DNA from: an uncultured Clostridium sp.
GTDB lineage: Bacteria > Bacillota > Clostridia > TANB77 > CAG-465
DNA: 64,000 nt
Assembly (NCBI GenBank): GCA_948470565.1
Contig: CAOKPF010000001.1
Location: forward strand, 5,866 to 69,865
Reading direction: 5' to 3'
This document shows positions 8,571 to 60,846 of this stretch, piece after piece. The translations under genes and the position numbers were made by a program. Under the pieces are notes generated by a model. That model was not told where the DNA came from. It did no database searches and worked only from the letters and a program-made list of their open reading frames with translations. The stretch's first letter is position 1. Each line of letters begins with the position of its first letter.

Positions 8571-9252
8571 TAAATATAGCATACATTAACGTCATCTATA
8601 AATCTTAATTGAACTGTGTGTTCGTTAAAGTTGGTTAGTTTTTTTGATACTCAATACGCCTTTAAATCCATGTTGGATAAGATGGTACTTCGGGCTGTGA
8701 GGGTAAGAACCTTATTGCAAAAAACTGACAATATACACTAAGAAGTAAGACTTAAAAATACCTAAACTTTTTATTGTTTTTTATTCATTTGTTATAATTT
8801 ATACCAAAAAGAGAAGATAAATTTTCCCCTTTATCTTCTCGACATTTCAATGAAACTATAATCTTTACAAATAGAAGAAAAGAAATATAAAGTAACTTAC
8901 TTCCTATTTGTTATTTACATTATACAACACTTATTTTATTTGTCAATATTAGTTTACAATAAAAATACTAACTTTTATTGTTTAACTATCGTTATATGTC
9001 TGCTTTGTATATTTATATGGCTCTTCTGGAAAGTACGTGATGTTTATCATAATTAAAATAACTTACTTAATATTATTATTTTTATACTCTTATTTCTATA
9101 TGTTTATTATCTAATAAGAATTAATTGTCATACATTTTTTGTAAGAGCCATTTATATTTTACTACTAACAACAGTACAAGCTAAGTATATTAATTTTAAA
9201 CTTTTATCATTAAATTTCTTGCAATTTTTAAGTTTATATTGTATAATTAACG

Positions 9253-9338
9253 TATCACCAAGCGATAGAAAGCTATGAACCTTGTCAGGTCTGGAAGGAA
9301 GCAGCAATAAGTAGTTATTTCTATGTGTTTGGTGTATT
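9253..9338 (+). ncRNA. ffs: signal recognition particle RNA (small 4.5S-type, domain IV)
   Basis: ccttgtcaggtctggaaggaagcagcaataag matches the SRP domain IV consensus (CAGGUCCGGAAGGAAGCAGC, GGAA tetraloop). 5' atcaccaagcgatagaaa pairs with 3' tttctatgtgtttggtgtat. Promoter TTGCAA-17-TATAAT at 9219-9247. Conserved position immediately upstream of dnaX. Confidence 0.7.
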
Positions 9339-9357
9339 ATTGTATAAGGGTGAGAAT

Positions 9358-15809: not shown

Positions 15810-16145
15810 TTAAGTAACAAAAAAATTCCAAATTATCATACATACCATACCCATTGGAAATGAAAATGTATAAGTAGCAATAGGCAGCCAATAAACGATA
15901 TGTTTATATTGAGTATTGATTTTTTTATTTAATGCAACACAAATTGTAATAAAGGATATGAAAATAAAATGGTATACCCCAGCTTCAATATATGGACCAA
16001 ATAAGTAAGTAAAAAAATACCCATTTTCAAAACATTCTTGTTTAGCTTTTTCCAAATTACACTGTCCAATGAAAAATTCAAATAAAAATAATGATACAAT
16101 GTATAATAATATTATTAAAAGTTTATTCTTTGTTTTTTTTGACAT
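15810..16145 (-). CDS. small 3-TM membrane protein, paralogue copy 4 (diverged C-terminus)
   Basis: About 95% nucleotide identity to the three upstream copies. GGGAGG RBS then ATG (MSKKTKNK...). The last ~8 residues differ (IWNFFVT). Confidence 0.7.
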   Translation of the reverse strand: MSKKTKNKLLIILLYIVSLFLFEFFIGQCNLEKAKQECFENGYFFTYLFGPYIEAGVYHFIFISFITICVALNKKINTQYKHIVYWLPIATYTFSFPMGMVCMIIWNFFVT

Positions 16146-16235
16146 AGTCATACCTCCCAATTTTTAATGAATTTTATTGTAATAGCAAATTTATTGACGA
16201 CATTAAAAATAAATCTTTAATATTTTTGTTTTTAT

Positions 16236-16583
16236 TTATCCAATAATATATGTTTCAAAAAAATTACCGATTATCATACATACCATACCCATTGGAAATG
16301 AAAATGTATAGGTAGCAATAGGTAGCCAATAAATGATATGTTTATATTGAGTATCGATTTTTTTATTTAATGCAACACAAATTGCAATAAAGGATATGAA
16401 AATAAAATGATATACCCCAGCTTCAATATATGGATAAAATACGTAAAGTACAAAATATCCATTTTCACCATATTCTTGTACCGCTTTTTCAAAATTACAT
16501 TCTCCAACGAAAAATTCAAATAAAAATAATGATATAATGTATAATAATATTATTAAAAGTTTATTCTTTGTTTTTTTTGACAT
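16236..16583 (-). CDS. small 3-TM membrane protein, paralogue copy 3
   Basis: Tandem 438-bp unit. Start at MSKK after GGGAGG (ORF track extends to 16598). Confidence 0.7.
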   Translation of the reverse strand: MSKKTKNKLLIILLYIISLFLFEFFVGECNFEKAVQEYGENGYFVLYVFYPYIEAGVYHFIFISFIAICVALNKKIDTQYKHIIYWLPIATYTFSFPMGMVCMIIGNFFETYIIG

Positions 16584-16673
16584 AGTCATACCTCCCAATT
16601 TTTAATGAATTTTATTGTAATAGCAAATTTATTGACGACATTAAAAATAAATCTTTAATATTTTTGTTTTTAT

Positions 16674-17021
16674 TTATCCAATAATATATGTTTCAAAAAA
16701 ATTACCGATTATCATACATACCATACCCATTGGAAATGAAAATGTATAGGTAGCAATAGGTAGCCAATAAATGATATGTTTATATTGAGTATCGATTTTT
16801 TTATTTAATGCAACACAAATTGCAATAAAGGATATGAAAATAAAATGGTATACCCCAGCTTGAAAATATGGATAAAATAAGTAAGTAAAAGAGTACCCAT
16901 TTTCAAAACATTCTTGTTCAGCTTTTTCAAAATTACATTCTCCAATGAAAAATTCAAATAAAAATAATGATACAATGTATAATAATATTATTAAAAGTTT
17001 ATTCTTTGTTTTTTTTGACAT
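16674..17021 (-). CDS. small 3-TM membrane protein, paralogue copy 2
   Basis: Tandem 438-bp unit, identical RBS/start context. Confidence 0.7.
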   Translation of the reverse strand: MSKKTKNKLLIILLYIVSLFLFEFFIGECNFEKAEQECFENGYSFTYLFYPYFQAGVYHFIFISFIAICVALNKKIDTQYKHIIYWLPIATYTFSFPMGMVCMIIGNFFETYIIG

Positions 17022-17111
17022 AGTCATACCTCCCAATTTTTAATGAATTTTATTGTAATAGCAAATTTATTGACGACATTAAAAATAAATCTTTAATATT
17101 TTTGTTTTTAT

Positions 17112-17459
17112 TTATCCAATAATATATGTTTCAAAAAAATTACCGATTATCATACATACCATACCCATTGGAAATGAAAATGTATAGGTAGCAATAGGTA
17201 GCCAATAAACGATATGTTTATATTGAGTATCAATTTTTTTATTTAATGCAACACAAATTGCAATAAAGGATATAAAAATAAAATGGTATACTCCTGCTCC
17301 AATATATGGACCAAATATGTAAGTAAAAAAATACCCATTTTCAAAACATTCTTGTTCAGCTTTTTTAAAATTACATTGTCCAATGAAAAATTCAAATAAA
17401 AATAATGATATAATGTATAAAATTATAATTAAAAGTTTATTTTTTGTTTTTTTTGACAT
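17112..17459 (-). CDS. small 3-TM membrane protein, paralogue copy 1
   Basis: First copy. Its start abuts the stop of the upstream 342-aa gene, suggesting translational coupling. Confidence 0.7.
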   Translation of the reverse strand: MSKKTKNKLLIIILYIISLFLFEFFIGQCNFKKAEQECFENGYFFTYIFGPYIGAGVYHFIFISFIAICVALNKKIDTQYKHIVYWLPIATYTFSFPMGMVCMIIGNFFETYIIG

Positions 17460-32538: not shown

Positions 32539-32546
32539 ACAATTTA

Positions 32547-32759
32547 TTATTGGTTAGGTTGTTGAGATTGCATTTGGTTTGCAGTTTGAGCAACCATTTT
32601 TTTAACCATTTCACCACCGATAGAACCAGCTTGTTTTGATGTTAAATCACCATTATAACCTTGTTTTAAGTTAACACCTAATTCATTAGCAACTTCATAT
32701 TTGAATTTGTTAAGAGCTTGCTTTGCTTGTTTATTAGACATTTTACTATTTGATGCCAT
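32547..32759 (-). CDS. alpha/beta-type small acid-soluble spore protein
   Basis: KFKYEVANELGV...GGEMVKKMV SASP signature. GGAGGTG RBS before MASNS (ORF track start is 5 codons early). Confidence 0.85.
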   Translation of the reverse strand: MASNSKMSNKQAKQALNKFKYEVANELGVNLKQGYNGDLTSKQAGSIGGEMVKKMVAQTANQMQSQQPNQ

Positions 32760-33104
32760 TTGTTTCACCTCCAATTAATATTAATTTGTGAAGTTTTTAA
32801 ATAATTATACGAAGATATTATTTTTTTATAAAAATAAATTATATATTCTTTAAAAACAATTATAGCGTTATGATAATATTTTTTTGAATTTTAATATTAT
32901 TATGTATAATAAATATTATTTTGTTCTATATAGTACAATAAAAAGATTAAAGAAAATGAAAAAATATTATATATCTATTGGTTAAAAAATATTTCTAATA
33001 AAGAGATTTGCAAAATTTTGTTTTAGAAATACGAAGTTAATAAATAAAAATAGTGAGTACAGATAAAAAGTACTCACTATTGTAATAAACAACTGTTAAC
33101 TAAA

Positions 33105-33311
33105 TTATTGGTTAGGTTGTTGAGATTGCATTTGGTTAGCTGCTTGAGCAACCATTTTTTTAACCATTTCACCACCTATAGAACCAGCTTCTCTAGATGT
33201 TAAGTCACCATTATAACCTTGTTTTAAGTTAACACCTAATTCATTAGCAACTTCATATTTAAATTTGTTAAGAGCTTCCTTAGCTTGTTTGTTAGTCATT
33301 TTACTATTTGA
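33105..33311 (-). CDS. alpha/beta-type small acid-soluble spore protein (tandem paralogue)
   Basis: About 90% identical to the upstream copy; the flanking DNA is also duplicated. Terminator hairpin at 33052-33090. Confidence 0.85.
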   Translation of the reverse strand, partial: SNSKMTNKQAKEALNKFKYEVANELGVNLKQGYNGDLTSREAGSIGGEMVKKMVAQAANQMQSQQPNQ

Positions 33312-33433
33312 TGCCATTTGTTTCACCTCCGTTATTAAAATTAGTAAAACTAAAATAATGTTTTACACTAATAATTTGCGCGAATTTTGTAAAATAATAC
33401 TGGAAAAAAAAGGAATTTAATAAAAAATTAAAT

Positions 33434-51062: not shown

Positions 51063-51740
51063 ATTTTATATGTATGACGGGCATGTCATAAATCTAGGGT
51101 GAAAGTCCCAAGAGGCGTATTTGTCGCGAACTCGATAGCAACTTGCAAAGCGTAAACCAGTAATGGAGCGTGAAAAGAAGCAATAGCGAAATCGTGGCTC
51201 TATGAATAAGAACTTGATATTAAGGCTTATTAGATGGATAAGTTGCCAAAACACAACAAAGTCCAAAAGACAAACGTAAATCTAATGGGTAAATCAAGAG
51301 AGTAAACGAGGAAAGAGTTATGACTTATCCCGTGAGGTCCTATAAGCGAATAAGTAGTAACAACGAATTATAGGAAGTCAGCAGAAGTCATAGTAGGTAG
51401 GAAACGAGCCAATAAAGGAAAGGAAGTCTCACGAATACTGAAGGACTGAACAATTTATAAGACTATGGAAGTCTTGAAATCTCTTGCAATTATCAGAATA
51501 AATAAAGATGAGAGGTTGAGCGTATCTTAATGGGTAATCCAAGAGATGATGTTGCAAGATAACGAAAAGAAAGGAAATAGACAAGCTATGAAAAAAAAAA
51601 ATAAAAAGCTAGGACGAAGAGGATTAGTTTTTGCCCTAGATTATTATTTAGCTTGAAATCAAACTTATAAATTGAACCGCCCATTGTCGAACAGAACGAT
51701 GCGGTGGTGTGATAGGGGATGAAAATTTTATTTTATAAAA
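51063..51740 (+). ncRNA. candidate large structured noncoding RNA (identity unresolved)
   Basis: About 700 nt with no credible ORF. GC content is markedly above the local background. The + strand is purine-rich. Internal near-repeats (cttaatgggtaa(a)tc(c)aagaga x2) and five RRAAGTCY motifs; several local hairpins. Confidence 0.4.
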
Positions 51741-51849: not shown

Positions 51850-52713
51850 ATGAATAAAAAAGAATTTGAAAATAGTCTATTAAGTAGAAATGTGGTAGAA
51901 GAGTACTTAAATAGTTCCAATGAAGAATTAGAAAAAACTTTTGGTAACCAATTTATGAGAACAGTAAATTTTGGTTCTCAGAATAATAAGGAGCATCAGT
52001 ATGATTTATTTGAACATATTTTACGAACTGTTGATAATATTCAAACAAATCATCTCTCAAGGCATGATGTTGTTATGATAAAGGTGGCAGCTTTTTTTCA
52101 TGATATAGGTAAACCAAATGTTGCAAAGGTTAATGAACAAACAGGTCAAACTCAGTATTTTAATCATGCTAAAGAGTCTGCAAAATTAGCAAAAGATATA
52201 TTAGAAAAGTTTGGCTTTAATAGTTTGGAAATAAAGGAAATAAGTTTTTTAATAGAAAGTCATGATGAGTTTATACAGATGAAAAATATTACAGATGCTA
52301 CACTTGCAAAAGTTTTAAATAAAAAAACAAAACTTGGTTTTACAATTTCCAATTTTAGGAAACTAATAATTTTATGTAGGGCTGATGTTATGGCGCAAAA
52401 AGATATTATAACAGAAAATGGAAATGTTATAGATACTAGAGTAAATAAGCTTGATAAACTTGAAATTATTGAAGCATTGTTGCCAAAATCAATTGTATTA
52501 ACACAGCAAAAAGAACTTAATAGATTAAAAAAACAGTTGAAGAATTTAGAAATTGTACCTAAACCTATAAATATTAATGGTAAAGTAGTAAATCAGGGGC
52601 AAATCGATAATTGGTATAGAATGAAAGATGAAGAAAAGATAAGTAGGGTAACAGATATTAAAGATAAAATTAATAAATTAAAAGAAGAGGTAAGATTTTT
52701 ATTAGAGAATTAA
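51850..52713 (+). CDS. HD-domain phosphohydrolase-like protein
   Basis: AAFFHDIGKP HD motif. 287 aa. Confidence 0.6.
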   Translation: MNKKEFENSLLSRNVVEEYLNSSNEELEKTFGNQFMRTVNFGSQNNKEHQYDLFEHILRTVDNIQTNHLSRHDVVMIKVAAFFHDIGKPNVAKVNEQTGQTQYFNHAKESAKLAKDILEKFGFNSLEIKEISFLIESHDEFIQMKNITDATLAKVLNKKTKLGFTISNFRKLIILCRADVMAQKDIITENGNVIDTRVNKLDKLEIIEALLPKSIVLTQQKELNRLKKQLKNLEIVPKPININGKVVNQGQIDNWYRMKDEEKISRVTDIKDKINKLKEEVRFLLEN

Positions 52714-56052: not shown

Positions 56053-56841
56053 TTATTTTTTTCTTTCTTTATAGTTTTTTCTTTTTTCGCTTAATTGAAG
56101 CTTTATATCTAAAAACTGTTTATTAATTTTTTCGAAATCTAAATTTGGAAATGCTTCAATAATTCTTTTCTTAAATATATTTCTCTTGTCAATTATATTT
56201 TGTCTAATAATTTGAAGCTGCTTTAATATTTCTAAGTCTTGTAATTTTTCATTATTTTTTTCATTTATAGAATTTGCAAGTTTGGCAAAAGTAATTAGTT
56301 TTTCCCTTAAACTAAAAATAGTTGCAATAGTAATAGTAAAGTCAATAAACATAAAAATAATTATAGTACTTATAACTAAATGCTTATATGTATTAGGAAT
56401 AAAATTTATAATATTATTTGCAAATGGTTCAAATATATATGTAACTGCAAGGCAAAGTATACCAAATTCAGTAGAATTTAATAAACAGATCCTACCATTT
56501 AAGTTAAATTTATGTTTAGAATAATCCCACCATTTTGCATTAAAAATTTTTTCCATCATATAGCTAGTTATATATTCTAAAATTGATGTAGCTATCATTC
56601 CAAACAAAAAAATTATTAAAGGGTTATAATAGTAATCTGATAAAAAAAAAGTAATTATTAGACCACCAAATCCATATATAGGACAATAGGGACCAAATAA
56701 AAAACCTCTATTAACAATTTTTCTGTCACATATTGAACAATAAATCATTTCACAAGTCCAGCCAAGAATACTATAAATAAAAAAGTATAAAAATATAGTG
56801 CTAAATTCCATAAAATCACTTCCACTGAAATTATATATCAA
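56053..56841 (-). CDS. polytopic membrane protein (DUF1113-like)
   Basis: Multiple TM helices, YGFGG motif. TTGACA..TATATAAT promoter just upstream. Confidence 0.45.
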   Translation of the reverse strand: MIYNFSGSDFMEFSTIFLYFFIYSILGWTCEMIYCSICDRKIVNRGFLFGPYCPIYGFGGLIITFFLSDYYYNPLIIFLFGMIATSILEYITSYMMEKIFNAKWWDYSKHKFNLNGRICLLNSTEFGILCLAVTYIFEPFANNIINFIPNTYKHLVISTIIIFMFIDFTITIATIFSLREKLITFAKLANSINEKNNEKLQDLEILKQLQIIRQNIIDKRNIFKKRIIEAFPNLDFEKINKQFLDIKLQLSEKRKNYKERKK

Positions 56842-56960
56842 ATTATATATTTTGTCAATAAAATTTATATAGTCAAATATAGCTATTTATAGGGGAATAT
56901 TAATAAATTACAGACAAAAAAATATATAAATTAATATATATTAATAATTAATTTATATTT

Positions 56961-57836
56961 TTATGAGAGTTTATTGGGCATAATTTTGTTATTGTTTAAT
57001 CTCTTCGGGTTTAATTCCCCGACGCTTGCGTCGTAACAAACTAGGCAAACATTACGAAGTTTTGTTTGCTGGGGCGAATACCCCGCTCTCGAAGAGAGGC
57101 AAACATCTTTTCTAGATGTTTGAGGGCTTGCCCCGGGGAAGTTTATTATATTAAACATTTCTGTGATAAAAATTTTTGAAGTTGGACGTGAATAGGGGAA
57201 AAAATCATTTAAAACACTAGGAGTTGTATACTTATTCATTGTTGAAATAGATTTATCAATTGCCCATTTTACATGTAGATTAGATTTGGCATTATTTTCA
57301 TTTGCTATTATTTTATATAATTCCTTTTCAAATGGAGTAATAAGAGAGTTTTTATTTAAACAAATCTTTATACATTCTACTATGTACAAATAACCAGGAC
57401 TGCTTTTATTAAAATAGAAATTATTTAAAAGTTCTGATATCTTTGTTATAAAATCATTATTTTTTATCTTTTCTTCTATTATATTTAATTTATCTATAAG
57501 TTTATCAAAATCAAAAGGTTTTGTTAAAATTTCAGATATAGGAATATTAAGTCTTACTAATTCTTGCATTAAATAGGGGTCTCCTGTAATGATTATTATT
57601 TCTGGAAAATTTTTAATATCCTTTATTTTATTAATAAGTTCTAATCCATTTAGTTTAGGCATTTTTAGATCTAGTATCATTATATCAAATGAATTTGTTA
57701 TTAAATTTTTATATGCCTCTTCACCATTAATTGATATATTACTTACTATGAATTTATTTCCAGTGCTATTGTTAATATAGTTGAATATATTTTTTACAAA
57801 GTTTAAATCATCATCAACTATTAAAATCTTCTTCAT
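56961..57836 (-). CDS. Spo0A-like response regulator paralogue (REC + divergent Spo0A_C)
   Basis: REC domain (ILIVDDD...DIMILDLKMP). C-terminal similarity to Spo0A_C: GYLYIVECI versus GYLYLREAI; ELYKIIANENN...VKWAIDKSI versus VLYPDIAKKYN...VERAIRHAI; F.Y....K......F. It lacks the [12 protein letters not shown] helix. The last ~55 codons read through a GC-rich hairpin element and are probably not native. Confidence 0.6.
   Translation of the reverse strand: MKKILIVDDDLNFVKNIFNYINNSTGNKFIVSNISINGEEAYKNLITNSFDIMILDLKMPKLNGLELINKIKDIKNFPEIIIITGDPYLMQELVRLNIPISEILTKPFDFDKLIDKLNIIEEKIKNNDFITKISELLNNFYFNKSSPGYLYIVECIKICLNKNSLITPFEKELYKIIANENNAKSNLHVKWAIDKSISTMNKYTTPSVLNDFFPYSRPTSKIFITEMFNIINFPGASPQTSRKDVCLSSRAGYSPQQTKLRNVCLVCYDASVGELNPKRLNNNKIMPNKLS
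56985..57165. other. GC-rich nested-hairpin element (two tandem ~45-nt hairpin modules)
   Basis: Hairpins cgacgcTTgcgtcg, gcaaac..gtttgc, ggggCGAATAcccc, ctctcGAAgagag, caaacatc..gatgtttg, ccccgggg. Two aggcaaacat modules. GC content far above surroundings. Confidence 0.45.
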
Positions 57837-58344: not shown

Positions 58345-58420
58345 GGGCTATTAGCTCAGTTGGCAGAGCACTTGACTTTTAATCAAGTTGTCCGCAGTTC
58401 GAACCTGCGATAGCTCACCA
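58345..58420 (+). tRNA. tRNA-Lys (anticodon UUU)
   Basis: Cloverleaf: acceptor GGGCTAT/ATAGCTC, anticodon stem cttga/tcaag with loop cTTTtaa, T-arm GTTCGAAC, 3' CCA encoded. Promoter TTGACA-17-TATTAT at 58291. Confidence 0.9.
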
Positions 58421-58518: not shown

Positions 58519-59580
58519 ATGTTTGAAAAATTAGAAGAATTATTAAAAAAATATAATGATTTGACAGAAAAAATATCAGATCCAGATGTAATAGCAGATC
58601 AGGAAGTTTGGAAAAAGTATATGAAAGAGCAATCTGCTATGAAAGATGTAGTGGATAAATATATAGAGTATAAAAATATAGAGGATAATATGAAAGAAGC
58701 AAAGGAACTTTTAAATGATCCTGAAATGAAAGAAATTGCAGAAGAAGAATATTATTCAAGTAAAGAAAAATTAACAAGTATGGAAGATGAGTTAAAGATA
58801 TTACTTCTACCAAAAGATGTTAATGATGACAATAATGTAATTATAGAAATAAGAGGTGGAGCAGGTGGTGAAGAGGCTGCGTTGTTTGCATATAATTTAT
58901 ATAGAATGTATACAATGTATGCTGAACTTAAAAGATGGCAAATAGAAATAATTGACATGAATGAAACAGGAATTGGTGGTTTAAAAGAAGTGTCATTTAT
59001 GCTTAAAGGAAAAGGAGCATATAGTAGACTTAAATTTGAAAGTGGTGTTCATAGAGTACAACGTGTTCCTGAAACTGAAGCAAGTGGAAGAATTCATACT
59101 TCAACAGTTACAGTTGCGGTTTTACCTGAAGTAGAAGATGTTGAAGTGGAAATTAATCAAAACGACCTTAGGATAGATACATATAGGGCTAGTGGTGCAG
59201 GTGGCCAGCACGTAAATAAAACATCATCTGCTATAAGAATAACTCATATTCCTACTGGAATTGTTGTTGCTTGTCAAAATGAGCGTTCACAGTTGCAAAA
59301 TAAGGAAACTGCAATGAAAATGCTTAGATCGAAACTATATGAAAAAAAGCAGGAGGAACAAGATAGTAAACTTGCACAGACTAGAAGATTGCAAGTTGGA
59401 AGTGGTGATAGAAGCGAGAAAATTAGAACGTATAATTATCCTCAAAGTAGAGTAACAGATCATAGAATAAATGTCACTATATATCAATTAGAAAGTTTTT
59501 TAAATGGTAATATAGATGAAATGATTGAAGCGTTAATTGCAGCAGATAGAGCAGATAGATTAAAAGAAGGAAATATATAG
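58519..59580 (+). CDS. prfA: peptide chain release factor 1
   Basis: PET tripeptide (RF1 PxT), [23 protein letters not shown] motif. 353 aa. Confidence 0.9.
59490..59580 (+). repeat. direct repeat copy 1 (native 3' end of prfA)
   Basis: 91 bp identical to 60653-60743. Confidence 0.85.
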
Positions 59581-59907
59581 TGTATTATATGGATATAGAT
59601 TTTTTATAATTTACTCTAACTAAAAACAAATAAAAAATATAATAAAAATTATCTTGAGCGTAAAAAGCCCAAGATTTTATTTTTATGAAAAAAGAAAAAT
59701 TATCAATTGCTTCTTGAGAGTTAAATCTTCACTCCATTTAATTCATAGAAACGATATTAAAAATATGTATAATAAACGAATAATTAAAAAATTATTATAT
59801 TTTATATGAAGTTTCTGAAAAAGTCCTAAAAAATTTTATAACAATTTTTTCAAGGCTCATATTTGTACTTTAAAGGCTTATTCTTTATAAAATATTGGTG
59901 AAAATGA

Positions 59908-60606: not shown

Positions 60607-60652
60607 AATATTAATTAAATGTTTTCATTAAGAATTAGGCAATGTAGCTACA

Positions 60653-60743
60653 AGAAAGTTTTTTAAATGGTAATATAGATGAAATGATTGAAGCGTTAAT
60701 TGCAGCAGATAGAGCAGATAGATTAAAAGAAGGAAATATATAG
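60653..60743 (+). repeat. direct repeat copy 2 (orphan duplicate of prfA 3' end)
   Basis: Identical 91 bp encoding the last 30 codons of RF1, with no start codon. Followed by the terminator at 60755-60790 (ttggaataa..ttattccag + T7). Confidence 0.85.
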
Positions 60744-60846
60744 TAATATTAATATTGGAATAATTTAGTTTATTCCAGTATTTTTTTGAATACGTAGAAA
60801 ATTTTTCTGATTTATAGTATAATTTTTTCTAGTAGGAGGATAAAAG

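Follow-up and report, generated by a model that had tools for sequence, protein, structure and literature searches.

The IS200 group of insertion sequences carries only tnpA within about 0.6–0.7 kb, as in IS200 of Salmonella. Rickettsia palindromic elements (RPEs) are selfish repeats found within protein-coding genes, into which they insert in frame. Palindrome-associated transposable elements (PATEs), which derive from IS200/IS605 elements but lack a transposase, have been described as the HqIRS families of Haloquadratum walsbyi (PMC3119063), and PATE-like elements have been reported in Geobacillus stearothermophilus (bioRxiv 10.1101/2023.03.14.532601). In IS608 of Helicobacter pylori (PMC3201880, PMC5027513), the cleavage site is recognised by pairing with the four nucleotides that lie 5′ of the hairpin foot, and non-canonical guide pairs are used (PMC3201880), and IS200/IS605 elements favour the lagging-strand-template orientation (PMC5027513). 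Here we analysed a 64,000-nucleotide stretch of DNA from an uncultured Clostridium sp. (hereafter the window), in which a GC-rich island interrupts a Spo0A-like response-regulator gene. With a probability of roughly 0.93, the island is best explained as a non-autonomous derivative of the IS200 group, that is, a PATE, and as mobile selfish DNA lodged in the gene rather than a regulatory RNA.

A compact, GC-rich and hairpin-dense block had been pointed out here by the first-pass annotation, and both base composition and folding bear this out. The 60-nt windows of highest GC in the whole 64 kb fall in the block (up to 55%), although its overall GC is 48%, compared with 21% in the flanking 2 kb, and not the 55–60% given earlier. 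When the block was folded as RNA, the two strands had z scores of −3.8 and −4.6 relative to dinucleotide shuffles, and when folded as DNA, of −3.9 and −4.9; none of 200 shuffles matched the folding of the block on either strand. The hairpins named in the annotation all exist, namely CGACGC-TT-GCGTCG, CTCTC-GAA-GAGAG (57086–57098), two GCAAACA hairpins and GGGC-TT-GCCC. The proposal of a riboswitch resembling the c-di-GMP-I aptamer found no counterpart in Rfam: nothing relevant was returned for the entire 64-kb window at gathering thresholds, and a search of 56800–57300 on both strands at E ≤ 10 gave only two chance snoRNA matches outside the block. The suggested terminator was likewise not recovered, as no terminator-like site (a hairpin followed by a T-run) occurs in or adjoining the block. 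A promoter-like match of 9/12 lies at 57120–57149 on the + strand, within chance expectation. The arrangement of the locus is given in Table 1.

Table 1 Features of the element, its host gene and its two target sites (window coordinates)
Feature	Position	Strand	Remark
Spo0A-like response-regulator gene, 291 aa	56961..57836	−	Insertion corresponds to residues 231–279
TTTAA target pentanucleotide, left cleavage/target site	56995..56999	+	Directly 5′ of the element; also precedes the second insertion site
Transposase-less IS200-type element (probable PATE), 147 bp	57000..57146	+ (its top strand)	Absent at this site from L003/L004
Conserved left-end block TCTCTTCGGGTTTAATTCCCCG	57000..57021	+	Family left-end match; putative left guide AATT at 57013–57016
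Left subterminal hairpin CGACGC-TT-GCGTCG	57020..57033	+	Covariation across 52 distinct left ends
Central hairpin GCAAACA...TGTTTGC, element core	57045..57069	+	In all folds; kept in L076/L046
Putative right-end guide AATA (57077–57080) and palindrome 5′ arm CCCCG	57077..57085	+	Homologous to GATACCCCG
38-nt lineage-specific expansion in right palindrome	57086..57123	+	Absent from L076/L046
Apical hairpin GGGC-TT-GCCC and palindrome 3′ arm CGGGG	57124..57138	+	Fits family consensus CCCCG-nnGC-TT-GCnn-CGGGG
Spacer AAGT and putative right cleavage tetranucleotide TTAT, element 3′ end	57139..57146	+	Family flanks diverge there
Second, empty target site (TTTAA/T)	57612..57617	+	Window reads AATTTTTAAT/ATCC; filled by an identical copy in L003/L004

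The limits of the block became apparent from two metagenome contigs of a near-identical strain (L003 and L004), which share about 99.9% identity with the window along some 3.6 kb. Both are without exactly the 147 nt at 57000–57146, and the flanks are 100% identical with no target duplication, so that the block is shorter than the roughly 170 bp first assigned to it. An ambiguity of 1 nt concerns the boundary, which would lie at 57000–57146 if the insertion followed TTTAA and at 57001–57147 if it followed TTTAAT, and the former is chosen only through the guide pairing known from IS608. In the empty allele the protein ends in ...EMFNI-LNNNKIMPNKLS and a stop, while the window allele has 49 additional in-frame codons followed by the identical 12 residues and the identical stop. 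The response-regulator ORF does run through the block, as annotated, but what had been read as a lost stop with about 55 codons of read-through is a 49-codon in-frame insertion that keeps the native last 12 codons and the stop.

L003 and L004 carry a 100% identical 147-nt copy about 617 bp away, upstream within the same gene and in the same orientation as the window copy (L003 1928–2074, L004 1601–1747), at a site that is empty in the window. This copy lies in a frame that contains stops, by which the gene is split and the protein truncated at 84 aa, and it was seen in two independent assemblies. At both filled/empty site pairs, the flanks are 100% identical and the target is not duplicated. 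These observations show that the 147-nt element with its expanded right palindrome has moved very recently, and, given that the identical element is found at two sites in filled and empty states, it is selfish DNA that is currently or was very recently mobile. Only three occupied sites are known for the exact 147-nt variant, the one in the window and the site in L003 and L004. Scans of JGI metagenomes with a 24-mer specific to this variant and with a 22-mer common to the Clostridium MAG subfamily both gave 0 matches. No further copy was detected in the 64-kb window by mismatch-tolerant patterns, repeat finding, short-word blastn or end-motif regular expressions. Distant blastn of the element against a phage collection gave no match, and a protein search with the 63-aa tail for copies translated elsewhere gave no candidates.

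Homology of both ends connects the element to a large family. The 22-nt left block recurs, exactly or with two degenerate positions, at more than 109 genome loci that span many phyla, and in 28 of these a Y1 transposase gene starts 25–80 nt beyond it; the block also matches plasmid sequences adjoining tnpA. In the Kovacikia copy the transposase was assigned to Pfam PF01797 (Y1_Tnp) with E = 1e-39. The full-length relatives, which include a 527-bp Microcystis element and an Oscillospiraceae copy (L035), are tnpA-only and 527–591 bp long, and they occur in several copies per genome with differing flanks, for example in Microcystis. Their right end is matched by the last ~70 nt of the element: GATACCCCG lies directly 3′ of the tnpA stop in full-length copies, and the pattern AATA/GATA-CCCCG...CGGGG-nnnn-TTAT/TCAT, which follows that stop directly, recurs at the 3′ end of the window element. 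The flanks diverge just past TCAT/TTAT and one more base, usually T, whether a copy is full-length or short. On the basis of these sequence matches, the element appears to keep the left end (22-nt block and hairpin) and the right end (guide, palindrome and cleavage tetranucleotide) of a parent IS. The central hairpin stands where tnpA would be, and no transposase gene is present inside the 147 bp.

Relatives without tnpA fall into sizes of 45–46, 75–110 and 139–188 nt, and by a crude open-frame test 13 of 42 short family members lie inside long ORFs, many of them from GC-rich genomes, in which chance alone can produce open frames. The closest relative is a 110-nt element (L076/L046) in a Clostridium sp. 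MAG of 25% GC, which is about 95% similar outside the 38-nt expansion. The expansion consists of two hairpins, CTCTC-GAA-GAGAG and CAAACATCT-TTTCT-AGATGTTTG, partly duplicates AGGCAAACAT at 57044–57053, and was found in no other family member. The identical copy at the second site is the sole ground for presuming that the expansion is tolerated by TnpA.

The target and the structured ends were further compared across the family. At 106 distinct insertion sites, positions −5 to −1 read T (95), T (103), T (95), A (104) and A (103), i.e., TTTAA at 90–98% per position, and the sequence further upstream is random. For the left hairpin, 97.1% of the cells in 52 distinct left ends are paired and 48 cells are changed on both sides; none of 500 shuffles reached the observed values and slid controls were 21–68% paired. 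At the right end, guide and cleavage tetranucleotide change together, with GATA-TCAT in 27 of 27 and AATA-TTAT in 11 of 11 distinct elements (38/38; Fisher p = 8e-10), and these statistics, like those of the hairpin, ignore kinship among the elements. The pair at the left end is AATT-TTAA; as the left CCCCG leaves three of its C's unpaired on the 3′ side, the guide AATT was assigned by left/right sequence homology. The position-by-position mapping of guide onto cleavage site is presumably that of IS608. Taken together, the sequence comparison suggests that a cross-phylum, tnpA-only family follows the IS608 rule of guide/cleavage pairing. Given the lack of target duplication and inverted repeats, the TTTAA target and the covariation of hairpin and guide, the element is assigned to the PATE type of IS200/IS605 elements.

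No tnpA was found in the 64-kb window by tblastn. The element presumably relies on a TnpA supplied in trans from beyond the window, and its mobility is deduced from the identical copies at two sites. Following the IS608 paradigm, TnpA from a full-length copy elsewhere in the genome would bind both subterminal hairpins on the single-stranded top strand, which here would be the + strand and the lagging-strand template. The enzyme would locate its cleavage sites through the 4-nt guides 5′ of the hairpins, AATT with TTAA on the left and AATA with TTAT on the right, and the element would be excised precisely as a single-stranded circle. The circle would then be pasted 3′ of TTTAA in single-stranded DNA without target duplication, and it is by one such event that the element would have entered the Spo0A-like gene, between its codons 230 and 231. 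The top strand is the + strand at both sites. This strand is purine-rich and gene-rich (GC skew +0.26, AT skew +0.11, ~38 of 47 long ORFs), and these skews and gene bias point indirectly to a direction of replication in which it serves as the lagging-strand template.

The host protein shows Pfam matches to Response_reg (E = 9e-18, 64.9 bits) and Spo0A_C (E = 1.4e-8, 35.1 bits with a cut-off of 25, residues 133–226), and given the weak Spo0A_C match we regard it as a divergent Spo0A-like paralogue. Its homologues are 233–240 aa long and end 5–12 residues past the last helix. The low-complexity peptide had been suspected not to be native, and indeed it is absent from all aligned homologues and from the ~99.9% identical strain. 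In the AF2 model, almost every 10-residue block as far as about residue 230 has a pLDDT above 90, with a helix at 220–232 predicted at high confidence, and the value falls below 50 for residues 240–291; the insert directly follows the last confident helix of the Spo0A_C domain. The model indicates that the 49-residue insert is probably a disordered loop. The element is antisense to the regulator gene and has stops in five of its six frames, the sole open frame being that of the host gene. As its length corresponds to 49 codons and it landed in the only stop-free frame, the protein gains a 49-residue loop and keeps its native 12-residue tail and stop. With only one frame of six open, nothing points to selection for translatability.

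The effects of the two sites differ, one insertion being disruptive (84-aa truncation) and the other tolerated (C-terminal 49-aa loop). The element might therefore be considered a reversible switch whose hops between the two TTTAA sites toggle the regulator between off and on or modified states in the population, since excision of IS200/IS605 elements is precise and the same element occupies two alternative sites in co-existing near-identical strains. We consider such a switch improbable; in a weaker variant, the 49-aa loop itself could alter the activity of the regulator.

Several other identities were weighed against the IS200-type derivative. A classical MITE or an RPE-like repeat would involve a DDE transposase, terminal inverted repeats and target-site duplications. 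Though the small, non-coding, hairpin-rich element lies in frame in a protein gene as RPEs do, this reading is very unlikely: neither of the two filled/empty pairs has a target duplication, the autonomous relatives encode a Y1 HUH transposase and not a DDE enzyme, and the two ends are direct rather than inverted repeats. The left palindrome reads CCCCG-ACGC-TT-GCGT-CG (57017–57033) and the right one CCCCG ... GGGC-TT-GCCC-CGGGG (57081–57138), both on the + strand, so that CCCCGnnGC... recurs on the same strand and terminal inverted repeats are absent. A further candidate is a REP/BIME-type repeat that depends on a domesticated RAYT (TnpA-REP) and not on a mobile IS, since REPs, too, are GC-rich hairpins that are related to the ends of IS200/IS605 elements and serve as substrates of Y1 enzymes. 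We give this little credence, as the cognate Y1 genes lie between both ends in compact 527–591-bp units, the several copies per genome with differing flanks, seen for example in Microcystis, indicate a mobile IS and not a single-copy RAYT amid REP arrays, and the element has 147 bp with distinct left and right ends compared with 20–40 bp for a REP. It is similarly hard to sustain that the structured part is a trans-acting guide RNA (omega RNA/reRNA) for TnpB or IscB. Some PATEs do encode omega RNAs (Meers et al. 2023 preprint) and the element is rich in structure in its right half, but all full-length relatives found are tnpA-only units with no room for tnpB or iscB, the extra hairpins are missing from the shorter relatives, and there is no Rfam match, which would include any curated TnpB/IscB-associated RNA motifs.

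Least likely of all is a cis-regulatory structured RNA, such as a c-di-GMP-I riboswitch or a terminator/attenuator serving the regulator or the downstream CmpB-like membrane-protein gene, which the empty site and the homology with IS ends effectively refute: the block does fold strongly on both strands and separates the main part of one gene from the beginning of the following one, yet it lies inside coding sequence, has neither an Rfam match at E ≤ 10 on either strand nor a hairpin with a T-run, is missing here from a ~99.9% identical strain while present elsewhere in that strain, and has ends homologous to IS ends of many phyla in unrelated contexts. Homology to IS ends and presence or absence between near-identical strains are not the behaviour of a resident cis-regulatory RNA, and of the ideas in the first-pass annotation it is the alternative of an inserted miniature repeat element that holds. 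A group I/II intron or IStron was rejected (no match to a ribozyme model, 147 nt, antisense to the gene), as was an intein (49 aa).

For annotation, the 291-aa protein in the public record should be flagged as a composite of host protein and 49 residues translated from the transposon, and what appears in the sister strains as a pair of genes of 84 aa and 153 aa is a single gene that the same element has interrupted. Almost identical strains show each of the two sites both filled and empty, which amounts to a clean natural experiment that fixes the boundaries to within 1 nt. A family whose guide pairs are all Watson-Crick, if this is true, would be an attractive minimal system in which to study or re-target single-strand transposition. 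Selfish DNA of this kind is already known, the case is unusually well documented, and the finding leaves the concepts of the field unchanged.

Compared with known PATEs, the element likewise has no coding capacity, carries near-terminal palindromes homologous to those of autonomous IS200/IS605 elements, is without inverted terminal repeats or target duplication, follows a 4–5-nt target at its 5′ side, and is strain-specific in its insertions; minimal forms consisting of the termini only are about 50 bp in both cases (45–46 nt here, 52 bp in Haloquadratum). It differs in the 38-nt two-hairpin expansion of the right palindrome and in the position of the window copy, in frame inside a protein-coding gene. 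The parent also differs from that of the Haloquadratum type, being a tnpA-only IS200-group element of many bacterial phyla instead of a haloarchaeal IS605/IS1341-type element with tnpB. As in IS608, the top strand carries imperfect subterminal palindromes, and the cleavage sites would be recognised by 4-nt guides situated 5′ of the hairpin foot. Further features in common are a fixed tetra- or pentanucleotide 5′ of the insertion, precise excision and a bias to the lagging-strand template. The spacing is comparable: the distance between the palindrome and the cleavage site, which lies 5′ of it at the left end and 3′ of it at the right end, is 17 and 8 nt, respectively, compared with 19 and 10 nt in IS608. 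The sites themselves are TTTAA and TTAT/TCAT instead of TTAC and TCAA, all four inferred guide-site pairs would be Watson-Crick under the presumed mapping, unlike in IS608, and the window element has neither tnpA nor tnpB of its own, its family being known here from sequence alone. By layout the full-length relatives resemble the IS200 group: tnpA (Pfam Y1_Tnp, “Transposase IS200 like”) is their only gene, a structured left end immediately precedes it, and they are very small. In the window element that gene is missing. Like RPEs, it is a short palindromic mobile repeat translated within a host protein where the fold tolerates it, and it is set apart from them by its origin and mechanism, which here would be Y1/HUH single-strand transposition, and by a sister copy that disrupts the same gene.

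The first-pass annotation had described a GC-rich island of about 170 bp and 55-60% GC at the 3' end of a Spo0A-like response-regulator gene. The island is real, with the highest-GC 60-nt windows of all 64 kb (up to 55%; overall GC 26%) lying here, but it is a block of 147 bp with exact ends, and the size and GC content claimed for it were wrong. The hairpins listed at that stage are present, and the regulator ORF indeed reads through them. When compared with dinucleotide-preserving shuffles, folding of the island gave z = -3.8 (+ strand) and -4.6 (- strand) as RNA and -3.9 and -4.9 as DNA, and in every case 0 of 200 shuffles folded as well. The host, uncultured and low in GC, belongs to the Clostridia; its RF1 shares 83% identity with the RF1 of Clostridium sp. 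CAG:921 and 83-87% with those of several "Clostridia bacterium" MAGs.

Positions of the hairpin element, its host gene and other features (window coordinates unless a contig is named)
Feature	Position	Strand	Remarks
Hairpin element	57000-57146	+	from the junctions; one shared T permits 57001-57147
Highest-GC 60-nt windows	57013-57150		GC profile
Segment matching plasmids	56995-57036		sensitive blastn
Right end, same as the family's	AATA-CCCCG 57077-57085; CGGGG-AAGT-TTAT 57134-57146	+	homology to full elements
Extra 38-nt block	57086-57123	+	two hairpins; partly duplicates AGGCAAACAT at 57044-57053
Spo0A-like regulator ORF	56961-57836	-	291 aa; runs through the island
Second site, empty in the window	57616/57617		about 617 bp from the first site
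Identical 147-nt copy	L003 1928-2074; L004 1601-1747		same orientation; 100% identity
Group II intron domains D1-D4	51154-51446	+	Rfam RF02001 97.9 bits, RF01998 38.8 bits
ORF after the intron domains	51850-52713
Four tandem units	15811-17424		about 438 nt each; 90-93% identity
Direct repeat, 103 nt	59479-59581; 60642-60744		95%
Direct repeat, 227 nt	32546-32772; 33104-33330		94% identity; 558 nt apart
Sigma-70 consensus	56858-56830	-	TTGACA, 17 nt, TATAAT; 12/12
tRNA	58345-58417	+	67 bits
Small SRP RNA	9249-9346	+	66 bits

A protein search using the regulator without its tail returned a protein (P0001) 99% identical to the regulator, with the C-terminus ...EMFNILNNNKIMPNKLS, encoded on L003 and L004, metagenome contigs of different samples that show ~2 mismatches to the window across roughly 3.6 kb. 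In the DNA alignment the flanks were 100% identical and the window held exactly 147 nt extra, with the + strand junctions GTTTAA/TCTCTTCGGG...GGGGAAGTTTAT/TATATTAAAC and no duplicated sequence at either junction. Without the insert the site reads GTTTAATATATTAAAC, which forms a 16-nt palindrome. Within the protein, the insert forms residues 231-279 (INFPGASPQ...GELNPKR), and the native LNNNKIMPNKLS and stop come after it. The insertion is thus in-frame and internal, 49 codons long and 12 codons ahead of the original stop, and not a lost stop with ~55 codons of read-through as first supposed. That this stretch is not native was correctly recognized: it is missing from the empty allele of the near-identical strain and from all eight regulator homologues (33-47% identical, 233-240 aa), whose C-termini lie 5-12 residues past the last helix. 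Only one of the six frames of the element is stop-free, the one used in the regulator.

The regulator has a receiver domain (Pfam E = 9e-18) and a weak, above-threshold match to Spo0A_C (residues 133-226, model positions 1-99 of 104). In the AlphaFold2 model, pLDDT exceeded 90 in nearly all 10-residue blocks to about residue 230, the last confident helix was 220-232, and residues 240-291 were below 50. The insert is therefore predicted to be a floppy appendix immediately past the folded Spo0A_C domain, and for this reason may be tolerated. This in-frame, structurally peripheral insertion has inflated a public protein record.

The strain without the insert at this site carries the same element elsewhere in the same gene, in the context AATTTTTAA/T/ATCC. 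There it is read in a frame with two stops, which shortens the regulator to 73 native and 11 foreign residues, and gene callers report 84-aa and 153-aa genes instead. Each strain thus has one copy in the regulator gene, at different TTTAA sites, the other site being precisely empty; this very clean two-site polymorphism within one gene is of modest interest. Given that the window contains 317 (+) and 371 (-) TTTAA sequences and the regulator gene only 8 and 10 of them, two random insertions into one 0.9-kb gene are unlikely, and the likelier history would be a hot spot or a local hop in which the element was precisely excised.

No match was found in the phage collection. A sensitive blastn search against plasmids matched sequences in Kovacikia (a cyanobacterium) and Candidatus Megaera (Rickettsiaceae). 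In each plasmid a reading frame for an IS200-type transposase lies 10-30 nt downstream of the match; the Kovacikia frame is intact (147 aa, Pfam Y1_Tnp E = 1e-39), the Megaera one degenerate. The 99.6-kb plasmid of Ca. Megaera polyxenophila (NZ_CP104168.1) has the family left end at three places. At the one examined, the tnpA frame that comes after it is truncated, and the next ~1.5 kb carry annotations for a DDE transposase gene and for a different, oppositely oriented IS200/IS605 tnpA. When one genome per prokaryotic species was scanned with the left-end block TCTCTTCGGGTYWAATTCCCCG, at least 109 loci were found, those listed spanning cyanobacteria, several proteobacterial classes, Lachnospiraceae, Oscillospiraceae, a Clostridium sp. 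MAG, Fusobacteriaceae, Spirochaetales, Bacteroidota, Planctomycetota and one archaeal MAG. More than 100 loci, from at least eight bacterial phyla and the archaeal MAG, share the 22-nt block without any sequence difference, and the adjoining hairpin varies freely through compensatory changes. Constancy of the first 21 nt suggests strong functional constraint, perhaps through TnpA contacts or a role in the tnpA 5'-UTR, together with frequent horizontal spread.

Among the loci listed, full elements are only 527-591 bp: after the left end comes a 441-nt tnpA, whose stop is directly followed by the right end GATACCCCG-palindrome-CGGGG-nnnn-TCAT; Microcystis holds several full copies per genome with different flanks. 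Elements with the same two ends and without tnpA measure 45-46 nt (a single fused hairpin), 75-110 nt and 139-188 nt. Five minimal members (L048, L055, L094, L103, L044) share one hairpin between left and right ends, in the layout TCTCTTCGGGTTTAATTCCCCG-CAGC-TT-GCTG-CGGGG-nnnn-TTAT. Closest among the relatives listed is an element of 110 nt from a Clostridium sp. MAG of 25% GC (L076, L046), nearly identical over the first ~88 nt; its right palindrome is simple and lacks the 38 extra nt found inside that of the window element. This extra block may have arisen by duplication within the element or through a very small second insertion; PATE palindromes in Haloquadratum are targets of other small repeats (PMC3119063).

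The properties that define IS200/IS605 elements, as described for IS608, are one-strand subterminal hairpins, insertion on the 3' side of a short fixed sequence with neither target duplication nor inverted terminal repeats, precise excision, lagging-strand-template preference, and recognition of both cleavage sites via 4-nt guides 5' of the hairpin foot (PMC3201880; PMC5027513). At 106 distinct sites among the loci listed, positions -5 to -1 read T95 T103 T95 A104 A103, and further upstream was random. Across 52 distinct left ends listed, 97.1% of left-hairpin cells were paired and 48 cells had changed on both sides; 0 of 500 shuffles reached these values, and slid controls were 21-68% paired. 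In distinct listed elements with their own right end, the guide GATA went with TCAT (27/27) and AATA with TTAT (11/11; Fisher p = 8e-10, which ignores phylogeny), while the left-end guide AATT goes with TTAA. It is also of modest interest that a minimal family with tnpA alone shows such perfect covariation across phyla. Guides and cleavage sites in IS608 pair as c2-g1, c1-g2, c3-g3 and c4-g4. Under this scheme all four pairs of the element are Watson-Crick, which would favour the boundary TTTAA/TCTC...TTAT/. The window + strand is purine-rich (GC skew +0.26, AT skew +0.11) and bears about 38 of 47 long ORFs, so it is probably leading-strand sequence and hence the template for the lagging strand; in both insertions the top strand lies on it.

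The block is homologous at both ends to a widespread family of tnpA-only IS200-group elements, is inserted exactly with nothing duplicated, agrees with the target and covariation of that family, and has an identical copy at a second site. It is thus, judging from its sequence, a transposase-less family member of the PATE type, which bears out the earlier idea of an inserted miniature repeat element, here with an exact 147-nt presence/absence. A REP/RAYT system is unlikely, as the Y1 genes lie within compact multi-copy IS units, and so is an omega-RNA-bearing PATE, the parent elements having neither tnpB nor iscB. That hopping between the two sites serves a phase-variation-like role seems very improbable, the coincidence of both sites in one gene being its sole support. 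The riboswitch or terminator first proposed is excluded by the empty allele, the homology of the block ends to IS ends, and the lack of an Rfam match on either strand and of a terminator signal. The absence of inverted terminal repeats and of duplications rules out a DDE-type MITE or RPE-like repeat. No tnpA was found in the 64-kb window, and the PATE-type element would be mobilized in trans by a TnpA encoded elsewhere, presumably by single-strand "peel and paste". This TnpA would have to tolerate the expanded right palindrome, which, from the identical second-site copy, evidently still transposes.

Several other features of the window were recorded. The group II intron domains look like another mobile element, one unrelated to the 147-bp block and about 6 kb from it. 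The tandem units each contain a 41-nt segment, identical in three of four copies. The 103-nt repeat begins at the prfA (RF1) 3' end and recurs 1.16 kb downstream; both copies match L003 over its first 55 nt. The perfect sigma-70 consensus overlaps the mechanically called TTG start of a CmpB-like ORF, so that the true start is probably the downstream ATG (MEFSTIF...). The only two remaining Rfam matches are the tRNA and small SRP RNA.

PATEs, as defined, include 52-bp terminal-only forms (PMC3119063), and they are also known in Geobacillus (bioRxiv 10.1101/2023.03.14.532601). Compared with IS608, where the left and right cleavage sites lie 19 and 10 nt from their palindromes, those of the window element lie 17 nt 5' and 8 nt 3'. 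The 52-bp "terminal-only" PATEs of Haloquadratum are analogous to the 45-46-nt minimal members of its family.
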